Source: Synechococcus elongatus PCC 6301
GTDB taxonomy: Bacteria; Cyanobacteriota; Cyanobacteriia; Synechococcales; Synechococcaceae
Assembly (NCBI RefSeq): GCF_000010065.1
Contig: NC_006576.1
Coordinates: 540,001 to 572,000 of the forward strand
Length of the DNA stretch: 32,000 nucleotides
Direction: 5' to 3'
Shown here: in pieces, positions 2,320-14,748 of the stretch
Position numbering within the stretch: position 1 is the stretch's first letter
How the letters are laid out: each line of letters opens with the position of its first letter
Made by a program: the position numbers and the translations under genes
The notes under the pieces: generated by a model
What the model was told of the DNA's origin: nothing
The model's input: only the letters and a program-made list of their open reading frames with translations
Databases searched by the model: none

Positions 2320-5300
2320 CTAGGCGGCTTGCGATCGCAGTTCTTCGTAGAGGCCGGTTTGGTTGAGCAGGATGTTTTTGATGCCGTCCTGTACCTGCTT
2401 AGAGTTGAGGGCTTGGCTACTCATGGATTGGTGAGCGTCGAGGGCGCTGATGATCGCTTCGAGCAGTTCTTGGGCAAAGTCGGGGGAGCTCGCAAATTGC
2501 TCTTTACTGTTGGCGATCGCTTGCTGACGCAGGGTGGGGGATTCGAGGAGTTTGCTGCGGAGGACAACGCTGACGTAGTTGACCTTGTCCGCGTCGGTGA
2601 GATCGCCTGTGAATAGTTCGTTCAGTTTGACGATCAGGGCTGAGAGCCAGACTTTCTCTTGGTCTTGGACAACACCTTTGCCGGGTTGGAGGCCGGGGAC
2701 GGGGATGGCTTCGCCCTGTTGGAGATCGAGGCGGCGATCGCCTTGGTGGCGGACTTGGTAGTGAGTCAGGACAACTTTGGAGAGGTCGATGCTGCCGACT
2801 TCGCGCTCAAATTCCAGCAACGGGATCAGGCGACGGAAGACGATCGCGCGTTTTTCGTAAGCGGTGTTGCCGTAGTCGAAGATTTGCGAGAGGAAGGTGT
2901 AAAGACGGACGTAGGTGCCTAGGTCGCTGCGGAACAGGGTGAGGGCGGCGAGTTCGTCTTGGGCGGTTTTGAGGGCGGCAGGGTCGTTTTGGGCTTCGGC
3001 GGTGCGGGCGGCTTGGCGAGCGTTGCGGTATTGATACAGCAAGCGTTCGGCGATCGGTTCTAGGGCTTTTTGCAGATCACTTTGTTTGGCGTTGGGGTTG
3101 AGGACAACTTTGACAACGCGATCGATTTCGTATGCGTCGTAATGCTTCTGAGCATCGAGCTTGAGCCGCAGATCCAAGATCAGGTTGGGATCGGTGGCGC
3201 TGGCGAGTTCAGCGGTGGTGTAGTAGGTCTTGAAGGCGGCCAGAATCTCAGCGGGATCGTTGCTGAAATCGACAATATAAGTGGTGTCTTTGCCGGGATG
3301 GCAGCGGTTGAGGCGCGATAGAGTTTGCACGGCTTGGATGCCCGCAAGACGCCGATCGATGTACATGCCACAGAGCAAGGGTTGGTCGAAGCCGGTTTGG
3401 AATTTGTTGGCGACGATCAGGATTTGGTAGCGATCGCTTTTGAAGGTTTCGCGGATGTCGCCTTGTAAGTTGGGGTTGAGGTTGGGGCTGGTTTCAGTGA
3501 ACGGGTCGGGGCCAGAATCGCGATCGCGGACTTCGCCACTAAAGGCAACAAGGGTGCCGAGACGGTACTGTTTTGCTGCAATGTAGCGATCGATCGCTAG
3601 TTTCCAGCGCACGGCTTCTTTGCGGGAACCGACCACGACCATCGCTTTGGCTTTGCCATTCAGCAGTGGCGCGACGTATTGCTGAAAATGCTCAACCACG
3701 ATCGCGACTTTCTGGGCGATGTTGTGGGGATGCAGCTTGACCCAGCCCATCAGCTTTTTGAGGGCAGCGTTGCGCTCCACTTCTTGATCGCTAAACTGCT
3801 GGCCTGCTTGGGCAAGGCGGAAGGCGACTTTGTAGCTGGTGTAGTTTTGCAGAACATCGAGGATGAAGCCTTCCTCGATCGCTTGCCGCATTGAATAGAC
3901 GTGGAAGGGCATGGGCAGATTATCAGGGCCAGCCGGTCGGTTGGGATCGGGACGTCTGCCGAATAATTCCAGCGTTTTGGCTTTGGGTGTGGCGGTAAAA
4001 GCAACGTAGGTGATGCCGCTTTCGCGGGCACGATCGCTCATTTGGGCCGCAAGGACGGCTTCGAGATCCACTTCGCCGCCGTCGTTGAGATCGGCGAGTT
4101 CGGCAGGAGAAAGCAGTTGTTTGAGTTTGCTGGCGGCTTCGCCGGTTTGAGAACTGTGGGCTTCGTCGGCAATGACAGCAAAGCGTTTACCTTCGGTGGC
4201 GGCCAGTTCGCGTACGGCTTGCAGAGCGAAGGGAAAGGTCTGAATCGTGCAGACAACAATTTTCTTATCGCCCTTGAGGGCTTCGGCAAGTTTGCTGCTT
4301 TTGCTGCCGTCGTCGCGGGTGATGGCAGCAACCACGCCTTTGTGCCGCTCGAAACTTTCGATCGCTTCTTGCAGTTGCGTATCAATGACGTTGCGATCGC
4401 TAACAACGATCACGGAATCGAAGACTTTGCGGTTATCGGCGTCGTGGAGTTCACTAAAGAAATGCGCTGTCCAAGCGATCGAATTGGTTTTGCCAGAACC
4501 GGCGGAATGCTGCACTAAATACTTGTGGCCAGCCCCTTCTTGCAGGACCGCCTCTTGCAGTCGCCGCGTCACGATCAGTTGGTGATAGCGCGGGAAGAGC
4601 AGGCGGGTGATTTGCTGTTTCTTGTTGCGCTCGGTGATGCAATAGCGCCCCAGAATTTCCAGCCAGCTATCGCGTTGCCACACCTCTTGCCAGAGATAAG
4701 CGGTGCGGTGACCACTAGCAGAGCTGACAGGATTCCCCGCGCCACAATCGGGCGCACCTGGATCACTGCCTTGGTTAAAGGGTAGGAAAACAGTAGCAAA
4801 GCCCGCCAGCTTGGTGGTCATTTGCACTTCGCGATTACTGACGGCGAAATGCACGATCGCGCCACTCGGGAAACTCAGCAACGGTTCTGGCGATTGTCCG
4901 GCGGGTTTGGGGTTGCGATCTTGTTTGTATTGATAAACGGCGTCGGCGATGTTTTGGGTGTTATCGGTTTTGAGTTCGACGGTGGCGACGGGAATGCCAT
5001 TCAGGAACAGAACGAGATCAATACAGTTTTGATTGTGGAGGGAATAGCGCACTTGCCGAATGACGCGCAGCCGATTGGCTTCGTAGCGATCGCGAATTTC
5101 GGCATTAGTAGCAAAGGCGGGTTTGAATTGCGCCAGCTTCAGCGATCGCGGCAGTCCGAGGACTTCGAGGCCATAGCGCAACAGATCGAGGGTGCCGACT
5201 TGATCGAGTTGTTGCCGGACTCGTTGCAACAGAATCGCTTCGGCTTGAGTGCCTTGTTTTTGTTGCAGAGTTTCCCAAGCTTCCGGTTGGGTTTGTTGGA

Positions 5301-5439
5301 GCCAAGCAAACAGATCGGGTGGATAAAGCGCTAAAGCGCGATCGTAGTCAGCGGCTGCGCCTTCCTCATAAATCCAGCCTTGCTGGGCGAGGTCTTGGCA
5401 AATTTCTGCTTCAAAAGCACTTTCTAAATGCACAGTCAT
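2320..5439 (-). CDS. hsdR: Type I restriction enzyme, R (endonuclease/translocase) subunit
   Basis: 1039 aa. N-terminal PD-(D/E)XK nuclease motif (IDLVLFLNGIPVATVELK). SF2 helicase motifs: Walker A SAGSGKTNS and DEAH box IADEAHSSQ. Long C-terminal helical region typical of HsdR. The start codon overlaps the hsdS stop in ATGA (5436-5439), implying translational coupling. Confidence 0.95.
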   Translation of the reverse strand: MTVHLESAFEAEICQDLAQQGWIYEEGAAADYDRALALYPPDLFAWLQQTQPEAWETLQQKQGTQAEAILLQRVRQQLDQVGTLDLLRYGLEVLGLPRSLKLAQFKPAFATNAEIRDRYEANRLRVIRQVRYSLHNQNCIDLVLFLNGIPVATVELKTDNTQNIADAVYQYKQDRNPKPAGQSPEPLLSFPSGAIVHFAVSNREVQMTTKLAGFATVFLPFNQGSDPGAPDCGAGNPVSSASGHRTAYLWQEVWQRDSWLEILGRYCITERNKKQQITRLLFPRYHQLIVTRRLQEAVLQEGAGHKYLVQHSAGSGKTNSIAWTAHFFSELHDADNRKVFDSVIVVSDRNVIDTQLQEAIESFERHKGVVAAITRDDGSKSSKLAEALKGDKKIVVCTIQTFPFALQAVRELAATEGKRFAVIADEAHSSQTGEAASKLKQLLSPAELADLNDGGEVDLEAVLAAQMSDRARESGITYVAFTATPKAKTLELFGRRPDPNRPAGPDNLPMPFHVYSMRQAIEEGFILDVLQNYTSYKVAFRLAQAGQQFSDQEVERNAALKKLMGWVKLHPHNIAQKVAIVVEHFQQYVAPLLNGKAKAMVVVGSRKEAVRWKLAIDRYIAAKQYRLGTLVAFSGEVRDRDSGPDPFTETSPNLNPNLQGDIRETFKSDRYQILIVANKFQTGFDQPLLCGMYIDRRLAGIQAVQTLSRLNRCHPGKDTTYIVDFSNDPAEILAAFKTYYTTAELASATDPNLILDLRLKLDAQKHYDAYEIDRVVKVVLNPNAKQSDLQKALEPIAERLLYQYRNARQAARTAEAQNDPAALKTAQDELAALTLFRSDLGTYVRLYTFLSQIFDYGNTAYEKRAIVFRRLIPLLEFEREVGSIDLSKVVLTHYQVRHQGDRRLDLQQGEAIPVPGLQPGKGVVQDQEKVWLSALIVKLNELFTGDLTDADKVNYVSVVLRSKLLESPTLRQQAIANSKEQFASSPDFAQELLEAIISALDAHQSMSSQALNSKQVQDGIKNILLNQTGLYEELRSQAA

Positions 5440-6797
5440 GCGGCCACCTCCGCCAAGCCCCGCACGTCAATTTGTCCGGTCACTGCCGCCGAAATTAATG
5501 CCGATCGCCGCTCTTGCAAAAGAGAAAGAGACTTTGTTGATTCATTCTCAAGTGATGTGATCTCTTCTAGTTGAGAATGAATGTGTTTGACAATTAGAAT
5601 CTGTTCATCTAGTGGAGGCAAAGCAAAAACTGTATCTCGCACAAGCTCTTGGCTAATATTGCCGGCTTTACGAGCACTAACAGCTCGCTCCATCCAAAAA
5701 GGTCTAAGGAACTGAATATATCTAAATGTAAACATTGGAACGGCATAATATGAGGGTAAAAGAGCACATAGCGCTTGATTTATAGCAGCAGGGAAAGTAA
5801 GAATTCCATTTTTTCCTACGGTTCCACCTCCGCCATACAAAGCAACTAGAACAGTATCCACTGGCAAGATTTCACAAGCAGTATCTTGAATAGCTTGATT
5901 TGTGATAGATACTTCAGCAGATCTTACTTCTTGATTTTCGATATCTGTTGTTCTTACCCAAGGAATACCTGAGTCAGAGTCAGCATAATAAAGAGCTTGC
6001 TCTTCAGTATTAGGTGTCCCGCCACTAGAAGTTTTGAAGTAATGCTTAATCTTTCCTGTTTTCCAATGGGCGGGGACTTGGCCGAGCCACTCAATGCCCG
6101 AATCTTTCAGCGGCGCATCGGGGTTGAGTCCTTTGGTGACTGCGTGGGAAATGACCGCTTGGCGTTTTTCTTGCAGCAGCGCAATCAGACGTTGTTGTTC
6201 TGCGATCAGTGCATCAATTTTTGCCGTTTCGCGATCGAGAAAAGATGCGATCGCTATTTGTTCTTCATCACTAGGTACTGGGAGAATAAATGACAAAAAA
6301 TTATCTTGACTAAGGTTTTGCATACTGGAAGAGGTTCCAGAGCAAACCATTTTTACCTGATCTCTATAAATTTGTGTCTGTGTCCAATAGTAAGCAAAGT
6401 TTGGATAGACATTGCTAATTCTTACTTGCCATAAGCGATCAGGCAGAAAAACACAGTCATAATCAACCAAGCTTAAACCAGCAGCACCTACTAAATCAGG
6501 TGTATTCATCCTGCTAACAATAAGTCTTCCAGATTTAACAGGACAAGCAGCTCGGTCAATATCTTCTTGAATAATTTCTTTCCTTTCCTCTGGACGGAAA
6601 GAACCTGTGTAGACACAGCTAGTTTTAAGTACAGATGGAATTCCTTCGTCTGGAGCATGATCAAGAGCATTAACACTGACTCCAGACTCTATTTCTGGTA
6701 TTAGTCGCCGTAGTTGTAATACATTCCAGTGAGAAGGAAGTTTTTCAAGCCATTCAATACCGCAATCTTTGTAAGCCGGATATCGAGGAAAACTCAT
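5436..6797 (-). CDS. hsdS: Type I restriction-modification specificity (S) subunit
   Basis: Two target-recognition domains are separated by a central coiled-coil conserved region (IAIASFLDRETAKIDALIAEQQRLIALLQEKRQAVISHAVTKGL). A matching C-terminal conserved region follows (LLQERRSALISAAVTGQIDVRG). The ORF track starts at a TTG (6827). I prefer the ATG at 6797 (MSFPRYPAYK...), which has GGAGA 9 nt upstream. Confidence 0.9.
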   Translation of the reverse strand: MSFPRYPAYKDCGIEWLEKLPSHWNVLQLRRLIPEIESGVSVNALDHAPDEGIPSVLKTSCVYTGSFRPEERKEIIQEDIDRAACPVKSGRLIVSRMNTPDLVGAAGLSLVDYDCVFLPDRLWQVRISNVYPNFAYYWTQTQIYRDQVKMVCSGTSSSMQNLSQDNFLSFILPVPSDEEQIAIASFLDRETAKIDALIAEQQRLIALLQEKRQAVISHAVTKGLNPDAPLKDSGIEWLGQVPAHWKTGKIKHYFKTSSGGTPNTEEQALYYADSDSGIPWVRTTDIENQEVRSAEVSITNQAIQDTACEILPVDTVLVALYGGGGTVGKNGILTFPAAINQALCALLPSYYAVPMFTFRYIQFLRPFWMERAVSARKAGNISQELVRDTVFALPPLDEQILIVKHIHSQLEEITSLENESTKSLSLLQERRSALISAAVTGQIDVRGLAEVAA

Positions 6798-7061
6798 TCC
6801 AAACTGTCTCCAGCCCAACGCCGTCAATCACAACCACCTCTCTCTGCACACTACAGATTGAAGTCTTGTCCTAGCTTAGCCCTCGCATCCCCGCAGCACC
6901 AAAACCCACAGCGCGATCGGCCTACTTCCCAGCCGCACCAAACAACATTCCCAGCAACTTCCGGCGGCGCTTCCGTCGTTGTCCCTGTTCCGTACTAGAT
7001 TGCGGCGGATCCAGCTTCGTCTGGCTCATCCCTAACCCCCTCCAAACCGCGATCGGGCCAC

Positions 7062-7310
7062 TTACTGCTGATTCAGCCAATCTTCTAAATCTTGAACATC
7101 GGCAAAATCCAACAACGCCTCACATAGATCTTCTAGTTGCTCAAGAGATAGGGCTTGAACTTGCTCCAGTAACTCTGGTGACAGCACCCCACATCGCTTT
7201 GGTAGCAAACGAAGAACAAAAGCCGTTGCCACCTCTAGCCGGCCTTCTTGAAAACCCTGTGCAAAGCCTTCTTTCCGAGCAATGCGTTCAACGCTGGTGA
7301 TGTAAGGCAT
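7062..7310 (-). CDS. Stand-alone DUF4351-like small protein (module A, 82 aa), paralogue of the C-terminal domain of the adjacent Rpn-family nuclease
   Basis: ATG preceded by AGGAG-N6. The protein starts MPYITSVERIARKEG and ends QALSLEQLEDL..LLDF..VQDLEDWLNQQ. It is colinear with residues 242-311 of the 311-aa ORF at 7591-8526. Confidence 0.7.
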   Translation of the reverse strand: MPYITSVERIARKEGFAQGFQEGRLEVATAFVLRLLPKRCGVLSPELLEQVQALSLEQLEDLCEALLDFADVQDLEDWLNQQ

Positions 7311-7323
7311 CGGTTACTCCTGC

Positions 7324-7551
7324 CTACAACTGCTGATTGAGCCAGTCCTCTAAATCTTGAATGCCAGAGAAATCCAACAAGTCATCTGCTAGATTCTCCA
7401 TCTGTTCGAGCGATAGGGCTTGTATCTGCGTCAGCAAAGCAGGTGAGAGCGTGCCACAACGTCGGGTAAGCTGCCGGAGAACTAAAGTATCAGCTTGTTC
7501 CCTCCGGCCTTCCTGTCTGCCAATGCGTTCAATGCTGGTGATGTAAGGCAT
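7324..7551 (-). CDS. Stand-alone DUF4351-like small protein (module B, 75 aa), paralogue of the C-terminal domain of the adjacent Rpn-family nuclease
   Basis: The ORF track starts at a GTG (7581). The ATG at 7551 is preceded by AGGAG-N6 and gives MPYITSIERIGRQEG...DLEDWLNQQL. The 5' end, plus 28 nt upstream, is 60/61 identical to the internal segment 7771-7831 of the upstream nuclease gene. Confidence 0.7.
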   Translation of the reverse strand: MPYITSIERIGRQEGRREQADTLVLRQLTRRCGTLSPALLTQIQALSLEQMENLADDLLDFSGIQDLEDWLNQQL

Positions 7552-7590
7552 CCGGCGCTCCTGCTCATAAGCCGACAGCACTTTCCTCCG

Positions 7591-8526
7591 CTACTGCTGA
7601 CTCAGCCACACCTCCAGATCATCAATCGTTGAGAAATCAAATAATGCTTCTCCCAGTGCTTCCATCTGCTCGATAGACAGCGCTTGTACTTGCGCTAAAA
7701 GACTTGAGGACAGAGTTCCATAGCGCTTCGTCAGTAAACGAAGAACAAAAATCTTCGCTTCCTCCCGCCGGCCAATGCGTTCAATGCTGGTGATGTAAGG
7801 CATTCGGCGCTCCTGCTCATAAGCCGACAGCTCACTCCTGAACTCTAGCTCAAGACCTTCGGGAAGGCTCAAGAGCCAGTCAATGAACTTGAAAAGGCCA
7901 ATAATGCGCTCTCGACTCAGGCCCCGCTCATACAAAAGTTTCAACAACTCCAGCTTCCATCGCTTGCGCAGTTGCCGATCTTGCTTCGTCTGAATCGCCC
8001 GTAAATGCGCAGCCACCGCGATCGCAAACGGATTCTCATCCTCCAAGAGTTGATCAAGGCGATCGAGATAATCCAGCAACTTAACGCTGACAAACTCACT
8101 GAGATCACGACTGCCCCAAAGCGCTGTCTCAAAAGCATTGGGTCGCCACGTCGGTGACTCATCCGCCAAAATCGCCACACTCGCGATCGGCACCGCAAAG
8201 CGATCGAAGATGCGATAGCGATAGACATACATCCGCTCCGCAAAGTTCGATTCCCTCGCGCCCTGCACCTCAATGTGTACCAGCACCCACGCTTCTTGAC
8301 CGGCTTTCGTCCAAACCTTAACGAGCTTGTCCGCATAACGTCGGCCAGTCTCCGCCTCGGCTGTAATCTGCTGGAGCTCCTTATCCAGAAACTCATAGCC
8401 GCGATCCCAATCAATGTCGGGATCCGCGATCGGCAAAAAGAAGCGAATGAACTCTGGGAAGAAAGCCTCAATTAACTCCTTCCACGGTGAATCGCTCTCG
8501 GTAAGGGGCAGCGCAGAATCGGTCAT
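7591..8526 (-). CDS. Rpn/YhgA-like PD-(D/E)XK recombination-promoting nuclease / putative transposase, with a C-terminal DUF4351-like module
   Basis: 311 aa with an ATG start. The N-terminal region has the Rpn/YhgA-type nuclease core signature (YADKLVKVW...AWVLVHIEVQG, i.e. D...hhhE.Q). The C-terminal 70 aa (MPYITSIERIGRRE...DLEVWLSQQ) form the module that is repeated twice downstream. Confidence 0.75.
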   Translation of the reverse strand: MTDSALPLTESDSPWKELIEAFFPEFIRFFLPIADPDIDWDRGYEFLDKELQQITAEAETGRRYADKLVKVWTKAGQEAWVLVHIEVQGARESNFAERMYVYRYRIFDRFAVPIASVAILADESPTWRPNAFETALWGSRDLSEFVSVKLLDYLDRLDQLLEDENPFAIAVAAHLRAIQTKQDRQLRKRWKLELLKLLYERGLSRERIIGLFKFIDWLLSLPEGLELEFRSELSAYEQERRMPYITSIERIGRREEAKIFVLRLLTKRYGTLSSSLLAQVQALSIEQMEALGEALFDFSTIDDLEVWLSQQ

Positions 8527-8529
8527 GCT

Positions 8530-8730
8530 TCATTCCTTGCGATCGCTCCAATAGCGGTCATCTTCCAACTCCTTACCTGAGAGCATCCGCAGCTCCCCAT
8601 CAATCACAACGGAAAGCCCAGTCCCTGTTTGTCGTGCCAATTCCCGTGCTCGCTGTGCCGCCCGCAATAAAGCAGGCATTACTTTTTGCATATCTGAATC
8701 ATGATCTTGAGATTGCGACTCTTGGGTCAT
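8530..8730 (-). CDS. Small hypothetical protein (66 aa), tightly coupled to the Rpn-like gene
   Basis: ATG preceded by GAGGAAG. Its stop is 3 nt from the Rpn ATG, and AAGGAA lies inside its 3' end. Acidic N- and C-termini flank a central Ala/Arg-rich helix (ALLRAAQRARELARQTGTGLSVVIDG). No family recognised. Confidence 0.5.
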   Translation of the reverse strand: MTQESQSQDHDSDMQKVMPALLRAAQRARELARQTGTGLSVVIDGELRMLSGKELEDDRYWSDRKE

Positions 8731-8751: not shown

Positions 8752-10779
8752 TTAGTGAGATAAGCCCCCGAGCATTGTCAGAATGCGATCGGTGACTTGC
8801 TGTAACTCCGCATCAATTTCCTCCAGCGATCGCGGTGGCGTAAACACATAAAAATGCCGGTTAAAGGGAATCTCGTAACCGACTTTGGTTTTCTCTGGGT
8901 CGATCCAAGCATCCGGCACATGCGGCAACACTTCTCGCTGGAAATAGGTGTCTACATCCTCAGTTAGCGGCACATTCTCGGTATCCCGTAAGCTGGCATC
9001 CGCCACAGGCTGCCCCTTAGTCTTGCCCCGCTGCGCCAGTACGACATTCCCCGCCTCATCTCGCTGCGGACGCTCCACTGTAATCGTGCGATAGCCAAAC
9101 TCTTCATTGCGAAAGATTTTGCTAACGGGTTTCCCATCGCGATCGGCTTCCTCAAAGTTGCCGAACAACCGCGTAATCTCCGCAATCTGCTCCTCGCTCA
9201 GTTCCTTGCGCTTACTGCCCAAACTCTTGCGCATCTTCTGCCAAAAACCACTGGCATCAATTAGCTGAACTTTGCCTTTGCGGCTTGCAGGCTTCCGGTT
9301 ACTCAGAATCCAGATATAGGTGCTGATACCTGTGTTGTAGAACATGTCCGTGGGCAAAGCGATAATCGCCTCGACCAGATCGTTTTCAAGGACATAGCGG
9401 CGAATCTCGCTCTCGCCAGACCCAGCCCCGCCGGTAAATAACGGTGATCCATTCAGCACAATCCCCAGACGGCTGCCGCCTTCACTAGCAGGTCGCATCT
9501 TCGAGATCAGATGCAGGAGAAAGAGCAACGAGCCATCACTGACGCGAGGTAAGCCAGGACCAAAACGACCGCTGTAGCCCAACTGTTCAGCTTCTCGCTG
9601 GACTTCCTTCTGAATCTTTTTCCACTCGACGCCGAAGGGAGGATTCGACAGCATGTAGTCGTACTTGGCATCGGGCAACTTGTCATCGGAGAGCGTGTTG
9701 CCAAAGCAAATATTCTGGATGTTTTGTCCCTTGATCAGCATGTCGGCTTTGCAGATCGCATAGGACTCTGGGTTCAATTCCTGCCCCGACAGCACCAATC
9801 GCGCCGAAGGATTCAGCTCCGTTAGATGTTCCTCGGCCACACTGAGCATGCCGCCCGTGCCTGCAGTGGGGTCATACAGACTGCGGACAATTCCAGGCTG
9901 AGTCAGCGCGGCATCATCCTCAATAAAGAGCAAATTGACCATCAGCCGAATCACTTCGCGGGGCGTGAAGTGTTCCCCAGCCGTTTCATTCGAGAGTTCG
10001 GCAAATTTGCGAATCAGCTCCTCAAATACCAAACCCATCTCGGCATTGCTAACCGTATCGGGATGGAGGTCGATCTGCGCAAAGCGTTCAGTGACAAGGT
10101 AAAGCAGACCCGCTTTTTCGAGGCGATCGATTTGTAGATGAAACTCAAAGCTATCGAAAATGTCCCGCACTGCTGGCGTGAAGCCTTGGATATAAGCACG
10201 CAGGTTCTCGCCAATGTTGTCGGCATCACCCATCAGCTGCTTGAGATCGAGCGGTGAGGTATTGCAGAAGTTCTGCCCTGCTTTCTTCAGCAAGAACGGT
10301 TCTGGAGCTAAGCCTTGGCTTTCGCGTAGGACTTTCTCTTCAAGAACAGCGGCTTTCGTCGGGGCAAGCACACAGTCCAAGCGCCGCAGCACCGTAAACG
10401 GCAGGATGATTTTGCCGTAGTCACTCTGTTTGTAGTCGCCGCGCAGCAGGTCAGCCACACTCCAAATGAAGGCCGAGAGATTCTGGCGTCCAGTCGGTTG
10501 CGGTTCTAGAGGAGCGGCCATTGGGAGGTCTGGTGGCGTAGCGATCGCAATTCCCTGACTATCCATCAACGTCACAGACCCGCCGCGTCCCCGTCCTGAT
10601 TGAATCCGGCCTTGCAGCATCAGTTCTGCTTTGACCGACTCGTAGCGAGCATCATCCCACGCCAACAACTGTTGCAGCTTGCTATTCCCCGCTGAGCCAC
10701 CGAGGGCTTGAAGCACCCCGAGGAACTCAGCTTGAAGACTGCTGATTTCGGTCGTTGATTGGGAGGATTCAAACGTCAT
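8752..10779 (-). CDS. hsdM: Type I restriction-modification DNA methyltransferase (M) subunit, with a roughly 100-aa N-terminal extension
   Basis: HsdM_N-like segment ([35 protein letters not shown]). AdoMet motif [10 protein letters not shown] and catalytic motif NPPFG. The ORF track extends to 10911, but that extension begins in the terminator T-tract of the upstream gene. I use the ATG at 10779 (MTFESSQ..., 675 aa). Confidence 0.92.
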
Positions 10780-14124: not shown

Positions 14125-14748
14125 TTATACACCACCGGCTAGGCGTCGCTCGGCTAAACGCGATCGCGCCTGAACGGCTCGTTCCTCATCGCTGTGAGCC
14201 TGCCGGTTGAGAGTTTCTGCAATCGCAGACTGGAGCTGGGTTGCAGCCGGAGCTAAGGTTTCCAGTGCCGCTGCTGCTGCATAGCGCACCACCCATTCCG
14301 GATCGTACTGAAGGCAGAGCTTCAGGGTTTCATAGCACTGCTGTTGTTGGGCAAGGCGATCGCTCTCGGACAGATCTGCCCAGCGCACTCGCCCCAAGCC
14401 GTAAGTCGCCGCCCGCCGCACACTGAGCGAAAAATCTTCCCGCGCCGCTGACAGGAGCAGGGGCAGGGCTGCCGGTTCTCCAATGCCAGCTAAGGCGCGC
14501 AGAGCCCAAGCTCTTGCGCCGTAGTTATAGTCATCCAGATTATTGAGAATGGCTTGTGCCGCTGGAGAACCCAGTTGAATCAGACCATCGACCGCAACCA
14601 CCGCAGCCCCTGGGTTGTTGAACGCTAAAACGCTAATCAAAGTCGGGATAGCCGCATCAGTACGAGCCGCCGACAGTGCCGCTACCGCCCGCACCAGTCC
14701 TTCCGCCGAATCAGCGGCTTCAACAGCAGCGATCAATTCCGTGCTCAT
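14125..14748 (-). CDS. cpcF: Phycocyanobilin lyase subunit CpcF (HEAT-repeat)
   Basis: 207 aa of HEAT-like repeats, immediately downstream of cpcE in the cpc operon. Confidence 0.88.
   Translation of the reverse strand: MSTELIAAVEAADSAEGLVRAVAALSAARTDAAIPTLISVLAFNNPGAAVVAVDGLIQLGSPAAQAILNNLDDYNYGARAWALRALAGIGEPAALPLLLSAAREDFSLSVRRAATYGLGRVRWADLSESDRLAQQQQCYETLKLCLQYDPEWVVRYAAAAALETLAPAATQLQSAIAETLNRQAHSDEERAVQARSRLAERRLAGGV

Follow-up and report, generated by a model that had tools for sequence, protein, structure and literature searches.

We analyzed a 32,000-nt stretch of the Synechococcus elongatus PCC 6301 genome (contig NC_006576.1, positions 540,001 to 572,000; hereafter the window, numbered from its first letter) and describe a 61-nt repeat that is shared by an Rpn-family gene and the DNA immediately following it. 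The repeat is likely to be the 5' boundary of the C-terminal module of an Rpn toxin-antitoxin gene, with a second copy standing before the first of two spare modules, and to reflect ordinary homologous recombination acting on a hypervariable defense gene rather than a dedicated switch. The genes, modules and repeat copies concerned are as follows (aa, amino acids; SD, Shine-Dalgarno sequence):

7591-8526, minus strand: Rpn-family gene, putative RpnL toxin, 311 aa (ABB57091, Synpcc7942_1061-type), with a constant N-terminal PD-(D/E)XK-like domain (aa 1-232) followed by module A
7591-7803, minus strand: module A, 70 aa, resident at the C-terminal end of the Rpn gene and the candidate for intragenic RpnS-A; contains a single GRRE unit
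7324-7551, minus strand: module B, a free-standing DUF4351/RpnS-like gene, 75 aa (ABB57092; Pfam E=2e-24), with units GRQE GRRE encoded by dodecamers at 7498-7521
7311-7323, minus strand: junction ahead of module C, GCAGGAGTAACCG, directly after the stop codon of B, with SD GGAG at 7317-7320
7062-7310, minus strand: module C, a second free-standing DUF4351/RpnS-like gene, 82 aa (ABB57093; Pfam E=5e-24)
7771-7831, minus strand: repeat copy 1, within the Rpn gene, comprising the LSAYEQERR linker, SD GGAG (7810-7813), an in-frame ATG (7801-7803) and MPYITSIERIG
7519-7579, minus strand: repeat copy 2, past the Rpn stop codon, comprising 28 nt of former linker that is now non-coding, SD GGAG (7558-7561), ATG (7549-7551) and 11 codons of module B

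The two copies are identical at 60 of 61 bases on the minus (coding) strand, are offset by 252 bp and share a longest exact run of 33 nt. Their only mismatch (7552 C versus 7804 T) falls at position -1 and is silent (CGA/CGG). Read in the direction of the genes, the 61-mer consists of the last base of codon 232, the nine codons of LSAYEQERR, and MPYITSIERIG; thus, 28 nt lie 5' of the ATG and 33 nt (11 codons) run from the ATG onward, and a GGAG precedes the ATG by 6 nt in both copies. A third, weaker copy at 7278-7310 matches at 30 of 33 positions (3 mismatches) and forms the first 33 nt of module C. When the window was searched with the 33-mer, three matches were obtained, against none in 100 shuffles. 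The repeat reported in the initial annotation is therefore real and far above chance level: its length, spacing and single differing base were reproduced on recomputation, as was its content of an SD, an ATG, about ten codons and 28 nt of upstream sequence encoding LSAYEQERR in both copies.

The evidence that this segment has served as a module boundary comes from a comparison of orthologous hsdM...hsdS loci taken from complete genomes. The window differs from PCC 7942 (CP000100.1, ~1.07 Mb) by three single-nucleotide polymorphisms (SNPs) in 12.9 kb, at window positions 14135, 13091 and 6454, and the Rpn, B and C proteins are identical in PCC 7942, PCC 6301 and UTEX 2973. Across the other strains the locus forms an allele series, given below with the N-domain and its resident module joined by a hyphen and the spare modules listed after it:

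PCC 7942: N-A, B, C
CP033061: N-B3, B2
PCC 11801: N-m1, m2, m3
CP144288: N-m2, m3', m4

In CP033061.1 (probably UTEX 3055) the gene order is hsdM, a 66-aa open reading frame (ORF), an Rpn gene of 320 aa, one DUF4351 gene and hsdS. Its N-domain (97.4% nucleotide identity to the window) is joined through the same 61-mer to module B, and exactly the 252-bp unit is missing; once this unit is removed from the window, the two loci are ~97-99% identical across the N-domain, the 61-mer (which carries the module B-type base) and module B. The resident module of CP033061 matches the body of the window's module B at 99% identity and has exactly one extra 12-nt unit. Synonymous divergence (dS) between the window and CP033061 is 0.11 in the N-domain and 0.07 in module B, values that fit descent from a single ancestral locus, and module A accordingly appears as an insertion/deletion difference between PCC 7942 and CP033061 that is flanked by the two 61-mers. 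The two modules of CP033061 are 94% identical to each other, and the second combines the flanks of module C with a B-like body, a mosaic that indicates gene conversion.

The same relation recurs in a second strain pair. In PCC 11801 (CP168031) the Rpn gene is followed by two spare modules, the first of which encodes the same protein as the resident module of CP144288, with ~99% identity at the DNA level. With its 241-nt first unit removed, PCC 11801 matches CP144288 at ~99% through that module and the next junction. Spare modules keep coding fragments upstream of their starts, and the breakpoint lies at -28 in the window, near -24 in PCC 11801 and near -39 in CP144288; these differing breakpoints imply repeated events. 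All S. elongatus strains examined have arrays of two to three modules at this locus, and an array is also found on a plasmid. During S. elongatus evolution this boundary has thus seen deletion, insertion and conversion of modules, with their number, order and identity varying, and in two strain pairs the resident module of one strain corresponds, by sequence, to a spare module of the other. The proposal that the repeat marks a recombination boundary of the C-terminal module is borne out by these alignments, and the architecture, for which a comparison between strains had been suggested, is not fixed.

Several side observations concern individual modules. The second module of CP144288 has 24 extra nt relative to PCC 11801 (two 4-aa units; L035:~4480-4560, the prefix denoting the locus), and the insert carries an in-frame TGA, so that this module looks like a pseudogene. 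At another locus, in IITB4 (CP143853.1, L036:4001-4981), a CGA to TGA change two codons before the internal ATG splits an Rpn paralogue, so that its N-domain ORF (242 aa) is now separate from a free module of 82 aa. The Rpn paralogue on the UTEX 3055 plasmid CP033063 is followed by a spare module that lacks an annotation and starts with TTG (L048:3465-3662), and a degenerate junction-like sequence is visible beyond this module.

The near-identity of the two 61-mers stands out against the divergence of the modules that they introduce. Beyond the 61 nt, A and B agree at 65% of nucleotides and 39 of 60 amino acids, and their synonymous sites are saturated (proportion of synonymous differences, pS, 0.80). 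At conserved residues, identical codons are used at 17 of 18 positions in the repeat and at 12 of 37 in the body (Fisher P = 1e-5; binomial P = 6e-8), an excess over the synonymous expectation that the initial annotation had proposed to look for. In other strains, only 6-11 of 17-19 codons are retained at the orthologous junction, whose variants partly cluster by genome and not by module type (CGCCGR in PCC 7942 and CP033061, CGACGT in PCC 11801, CGTCGT in CP144288). Because codon identity is in excess within the repeat while the body is saturated, and because the junction varies between strains, the near-identity is best attributed to recent recombination (duplication or gene conversion) acting on much older modules, and not to selection at the nucleotide level.

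Such selection, exerted through an internal promoter, the context of the start site or an RNA structure, is a highly improbable source of the identity. The segment does contain an SD and a start codon, and E. coli rpn genes have internal transcription starts (Zhong 2023, PMC10400941); however, the synonymous sites of the segment differ at 8-11 codons between strains, RNA folds of 120-nt junction windows were no better than those of shuffled sequences (z = +0.3 to +0.8), and a promoter/terminator scan of the junction gave no promoter-like site and nothing informative. A pattern scan of metagenomes for the junction returned 0 matches. The repeat would also lack any role if it were simply the remnant of a young, decaying tandem duplication. 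Downstream rpnS copies are known to arise by duplication of the resident one (Zhong 2023, PMC10400941), and the 94% identity of the CP033061 modules would suit such an origin. No single date, however, can yield both bodies saturated at pS 0.80 and a 61-mer with one difference, and module B goes back to the PCC 7942/CP033061 split; we therefore regard a plain young duplication as very unlikely.

The recombination reading draws its biological meaning from the assignment of the 311-aa protein to the Rpn family. Rpn genes are toxin-antitoxin "genes within genes", in which the RpnL nuclease is blocked by its own C-terminal part, RpnS, made from an internal start (Zhong 2023, PMC10400941). RpnS also occurs as a separate downstream gene annotated as DUF4351; its first helix contains 4-aa repeats, variable in number, that start 8-20 residues past the initiator Met, and inhibition is lost when the repeat numbers do not match (PMC10400941). 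In the 311-aa protein, Pfam DUF4351 (PF14261) covers aa 252-308 (E=4e-23). The YhgA-like family PF04754 is matched by 22 of 64 homologues (best E 8.7e-6), and in an hhalign comparison of the family profile with E. coli RpnA (E=0.064) the segment RYAD...IEVQ was aligned with SYSD...IEHQ, i.e. with the D...ExQ core. Among the 64 homologues, D66 and Q88 are invariant, E86 is conserved in at least 90%, and so is the internal start Met242. The gene at 7591-8526 is thus assigned, from these profile matches, as a putative DUF4351/YhgA-like Rpn protein whose N-domain is distantly YhgA-like. The repeat had been described as a substrate for swapping a nuclease C-terminal domain; this part of the description has to be corrected, since the exchanged module is DUF4351, of the RpnS oligomerization/antitoxin type, and the nuclease motif lies in the constant N-domain.

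The locus also fits the RpnL/RpnS pattern in the features of its modules. The DUF4351 module occurs in free-standing form as well, a putative internal start is present in the Rpn gene (GGAG-CGCCGA-ATG at 7813..7801), and the 4-aa repeats begin at residue 11 of the modules. The repeat region of module C is 12 aa longer than that of A and 8 aa longer than that of B, so that gaps between modules measure 4, 8 or 12 aa. The predicted fold of a module is a long first helix (residues 4-32) followed by three short helices. A scan of genome contigs with the Rpn protein returned only relatives of at most 57% identity, S. elongatus itself being absent from the returned set, and a free downstream module was present at ~2 of 21 of these loci.

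Several observations weigh against parts of this account. The difference between PCC 7942 and CP033061 could be a deletion of A or equally an insertion of A. The relevant junctions of PCC 11801 are only ~75% alike, as read from the junction sequences, and because of this the exchange there probably used longer flanking homology or foreign DNA and not the short repeat. The N-terminal part of the protein scores 17 bits (E=0.0046) against the Pfam Transposase_31/YhgA-like family, below the cutoff of 21, and scans of the protein against NCBIfam and PADLOC gave no match. Fold searches with its AlphaFold2 model (pLDDT 88.9) placed PD-(D/E)XK nucleases at the top of the Foldseek matches, all non-significant (E>0.04), and did not retrieve RpnA-S. 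Our literature search found nothing on Synpcc7942_1061 to 1063.

By analogy with the system of Zhong et al. 2023, the locus most likely works as follows. The full-length RpnL would consist of the constant PD-(D/E)XK-type nuclease domain and the helical module A, and the internal GGAG-ATG within the repeat would also yield module A alone, as RpnS-A, which would bind the matching module of RpnL and block it. Modules B and C, which have the same start signals, would be produced as free paralogues of RpnS. The three modules differ by whole 4-aa units in the first helix, the feature that sets partner specificity in E. coli. A crossover in the repeat would therefore produce an in-frame toxin with a matched antitoxin, since each module brings its own internal start. 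In silico, removal of the 252 bp gives an in-frame fusion of 316 aa. The claim that recombination would swap the module in frame thus stands, with a different reason: the in-frame outcome is independent of 252 being a multiple of 3, and a crossover anywhere in the repeat stays in frame because the repeat includes the module's own ATG.

The free-standing modules do not resemble silent cassettes, as which they had first been interpreted. Modules B and C each have GGAG 6 nt before an ATG, the ratio of nonsynonymous to synonymous substitution rates (dN/dS) in module comparisons is 0.04-0.2, and module B differs from the second module of CP033061 by 7 synonymous changes and 1 nonsynonymous change. 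Because they have their own SD and ATG and evolve under purifying selection, the spare modules are better regarded as putative genes with their own start sites than as silent cassettes.

The spares could also be working antitoxins against other RpnL toxins, e.g. plasmid-borne or incoming ones, in the manner of orphan immunity genes, the repeat then being a by-product of their origin. Besides the start signals and the low dN/dS, this possibility is favored by the UTEX 3055 plasmid CP033063, on which the Rpn module is B-like (85% identical to B, with a repeat region of the same length) and is 74 aa long, the length of the chromosomal spare of UTEX 3055. In E. coli, the protein of ypaA is made (Zhong 2023, PMC10400941). 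On the other side, no Rpn relative was found on PCC 7942 plasmids in PLSDB, and a search with module C of 5.8 billion clusters gave no full-length protein with a C-like tail. We consider such a role possible, although on balance unlikely.

A different function for the spares would be that of an adaptive cassette reservoir, kept so that recombination at the repeat can quickly switch RpnL/RpnS specificity, e.g. in escape from a phage factor; possible helpers would be the Rpn nuclease, polyploidy and natural competence. The recurrence of two- to three-module arrays in all examined strains and on a plasmid, the two independent pairs in which resident and spare correspond, and the repeated events implied by the breakpoints can all be cited for it, and Zhong et al. 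(2023, PMC10400941) argue for strong diversifying pressure on this domain. If the DUF4351 array between hsdM and hsdS were indeed a working specificity reservoir, with junction recombination rotating spares into the toxin gene, each rotation would change the dimerization code of the toxin and its intragenic antitoxin together, and the locus would be an intracellular toxin-antitoxin analogue of the orphan-cassette diversification of polymorphic toxins. However, we found neither a recombinase gene between hsdM and hsdS nor a special recombination site, and inverted repeats are absent nearby; a deletion cannot be reversed; one architecture is common to the legacy strains PCC 7942, PCC 6301 and UTEX 2973; the spares are expressed-type genes under purifying selection; no phage-encoded relatives or mimics were found in INPHARED or IMG/VR; and a trustworthy within-culture recombinant was not found among Logan contigs. 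A reservoir is thus a doubtful interpretation, and a working one, with spares being rotated into the toxin gene, is likewise improbable.

The last of these points concerns short-read contigs that contain the predicted fusion. The in silico product of the 252-bp deletion is exactly protein P0001, which is encoded on 18 Logan contigs in the right genomic context. Logan assemblies use k=31, with each 31-mer allowed once per accession, and no Logan contig can hold the true arrangement because the 33-nt exact run of the repeat exceeds this rule. All nine contigs examined are of the PCC 7942 type, with the junction base expected from graph collapse and the three CP000100 SNPs in common. In sister runs with adjacent accession numbers, contigs begin within module A or at the repeat and run on into B. 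The genuine 311-aa protein is never present in Logan, and a look-up of the expected module A loop product found nothing. We rejected the contigs as proof of an in vivo deletion on account of the k=31 rule, the collapse-type junction base and the intact sister runs; they are probably k=31 assembly collapses. This case carries the warning that planet-scale k=31 assemblies can create exactly the recombinant that is being sought. Programmed or frequent switching, as implied by the functional switch first proposed, is therefore not shown: recombination is right as the evolutionary history of the locus, and a programmed switch is without supporting evidence.

It had also been suggested that readthrough of the TAG at 7591-7593 could create a tandem A-B protein. 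Module B is in the same frame as the Rpn gene, as annotated: the stop codon (TAG, 7593..7591) is followed by three codons and then by an in-frame GTG at 7581, which places B four codons past the stop. This frame sharing is not conserved, however, module C and the second module of PCC 11801 (241-nt spacing) both being out of frame with the Rpn gene. We know of no readthrough signal at the Rpn TAG, nothing supports the tandem-module protein, and we hold readthrough to be scarcely credible.

The closest known case is rpnE-ypaA of E. coli K-12, in which rpnE is followed by rpnE-Ss; for Rpn genes, the arrangement has already been described. There, a 72-nt repeat (97% identity, copies 183 nt apart; L049:7620-7691 and 7803-7874) spans the SD, the ATG and the first codons. 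Both loci combine a nuclease-type N-domain with a small helical C-domain, an internal SD and ATG (putative in S. elongatus), a second small gene downstream, a near-identical repeat over the SD, ATG and first codons, and dodecamer-encoded 4-aa units in the first helix. The defense-island setting of E. coli rpn genes is paralleled here by the position between hsdM and hsdS. The loci differ in that rpnE-ypaA, like rpnC with its downstream copy, has one spare where the window has two, and in that the rpnE-ypaA copies are recent (84-97%), whereas the spares described here are old and divergent (65% nucleotide identity in the body). In S. elongatus, moreover, residents and spares trade places between strains, the array lies inside a type I restriction-modification (R-M) operon, and the N-domain is only distantly YhgA-like. 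Fusion of an N-domain to a downstream rpnS gene, with loss of the downstream copy, has been reported, and the origin of downstream copies and of repeat-number variants was left open (Zhong et al., PMC10400941). The S. elongatus series makes this question testable: it brings a putative RpnL/RpnS "antitoxin within a toxin" system to a model cyanobacterium that is amenable to genetics, and as a natural allele series it shows how a hypervariable C-terminal module is exchanged.

The likeness to the orphan cassettes of polymorphic toxins, drawn in the initial annotation, holds in part. As in contact-dependent growth inhibition (CDI) cdiA-CT/cdiI and Rhs loci, a constant N-terminal part carries a variable C-terminal module that looks displaced or fused at the boundary between strains, and the orphan keeps a conserved upstream coding piece (28 nt in the window, ~24 in PCC 11801 and ~39 in CP144288). 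The likeness fails in that the variable module here is an antitoxin/oligomerization module (DUF4351) and not a toxin, without a secretion apparatus. Furthermore, no separate immunity genes stand between the modules, the 13-39 nt gaps leaving no room for an ORF, and the orphans have their own SD and ATG and are probably translated. Antigenic variation from silent cassettes and shufflons provides no better model, as the donors here carry an SD and ATG and neither a recombinase nor a special site is present. In HsdS proteins of the EcoR124I/II type, gain or loss of a dodecamer alters helix length and specificity, a parallel cited by Zhong 2023 (PMC10400941). This concerns another protein with another function, and the parallel is limited to the repeats within the modules and does not extend to the 61-nt junction.

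The array lies within a type I R-M operon, in which hsdM, a 66-aa ORF, the Rpn-like gene, B, C, hsdS and hsdR follow each other on one strand:

8752-10779, minus strand: hsdM, the upstream flank of the insertion site (Pfam HsdM_N, N6_Mtase)
8530-8730, minus strand: 66-aa ORF, ending 3 nt before the Rpn start codon, with no Pfam, NCBIfam or PADLOC match
5436-6797, minus strand: hsdS, the downstream flank (Pfam Methylase_S)
2320-5439, minus strand: hsdR, after hsdS

The 66-aa ORF is co-conserved with the Rpn gene in CP033061, a 68-aa ORF occupies the same position in loci L034 and L035, and PCC 11801 lacks the ORF, whose product may be a third Rpn-system component. Other contents of the hsdM-hsdS gap include an extra BrnA antitoxin gene in PCC 11801 and a HEPN/nucleotidyltransferase pair in CP144288, and the gap seems to be a collecting site for defense and toxin-antitoxin genes. 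In CP144288, both hsdM and the Rpn gene are split. Finally, a conserved 35-aa ORF, MSQTKLDPPQSSTEQGQRRKRRRKLLGMLFGAAGK, lies between module C and hsdS (6922-7029, minus strand). It has counterparts in CP033061 (L033:5234-5341) and CP144288 (L035:5245-5352), and PCC 11801 DNA also shows a similar sequence. In the 35-aa product, a basic stretch precedes a short hydrophobic tail.

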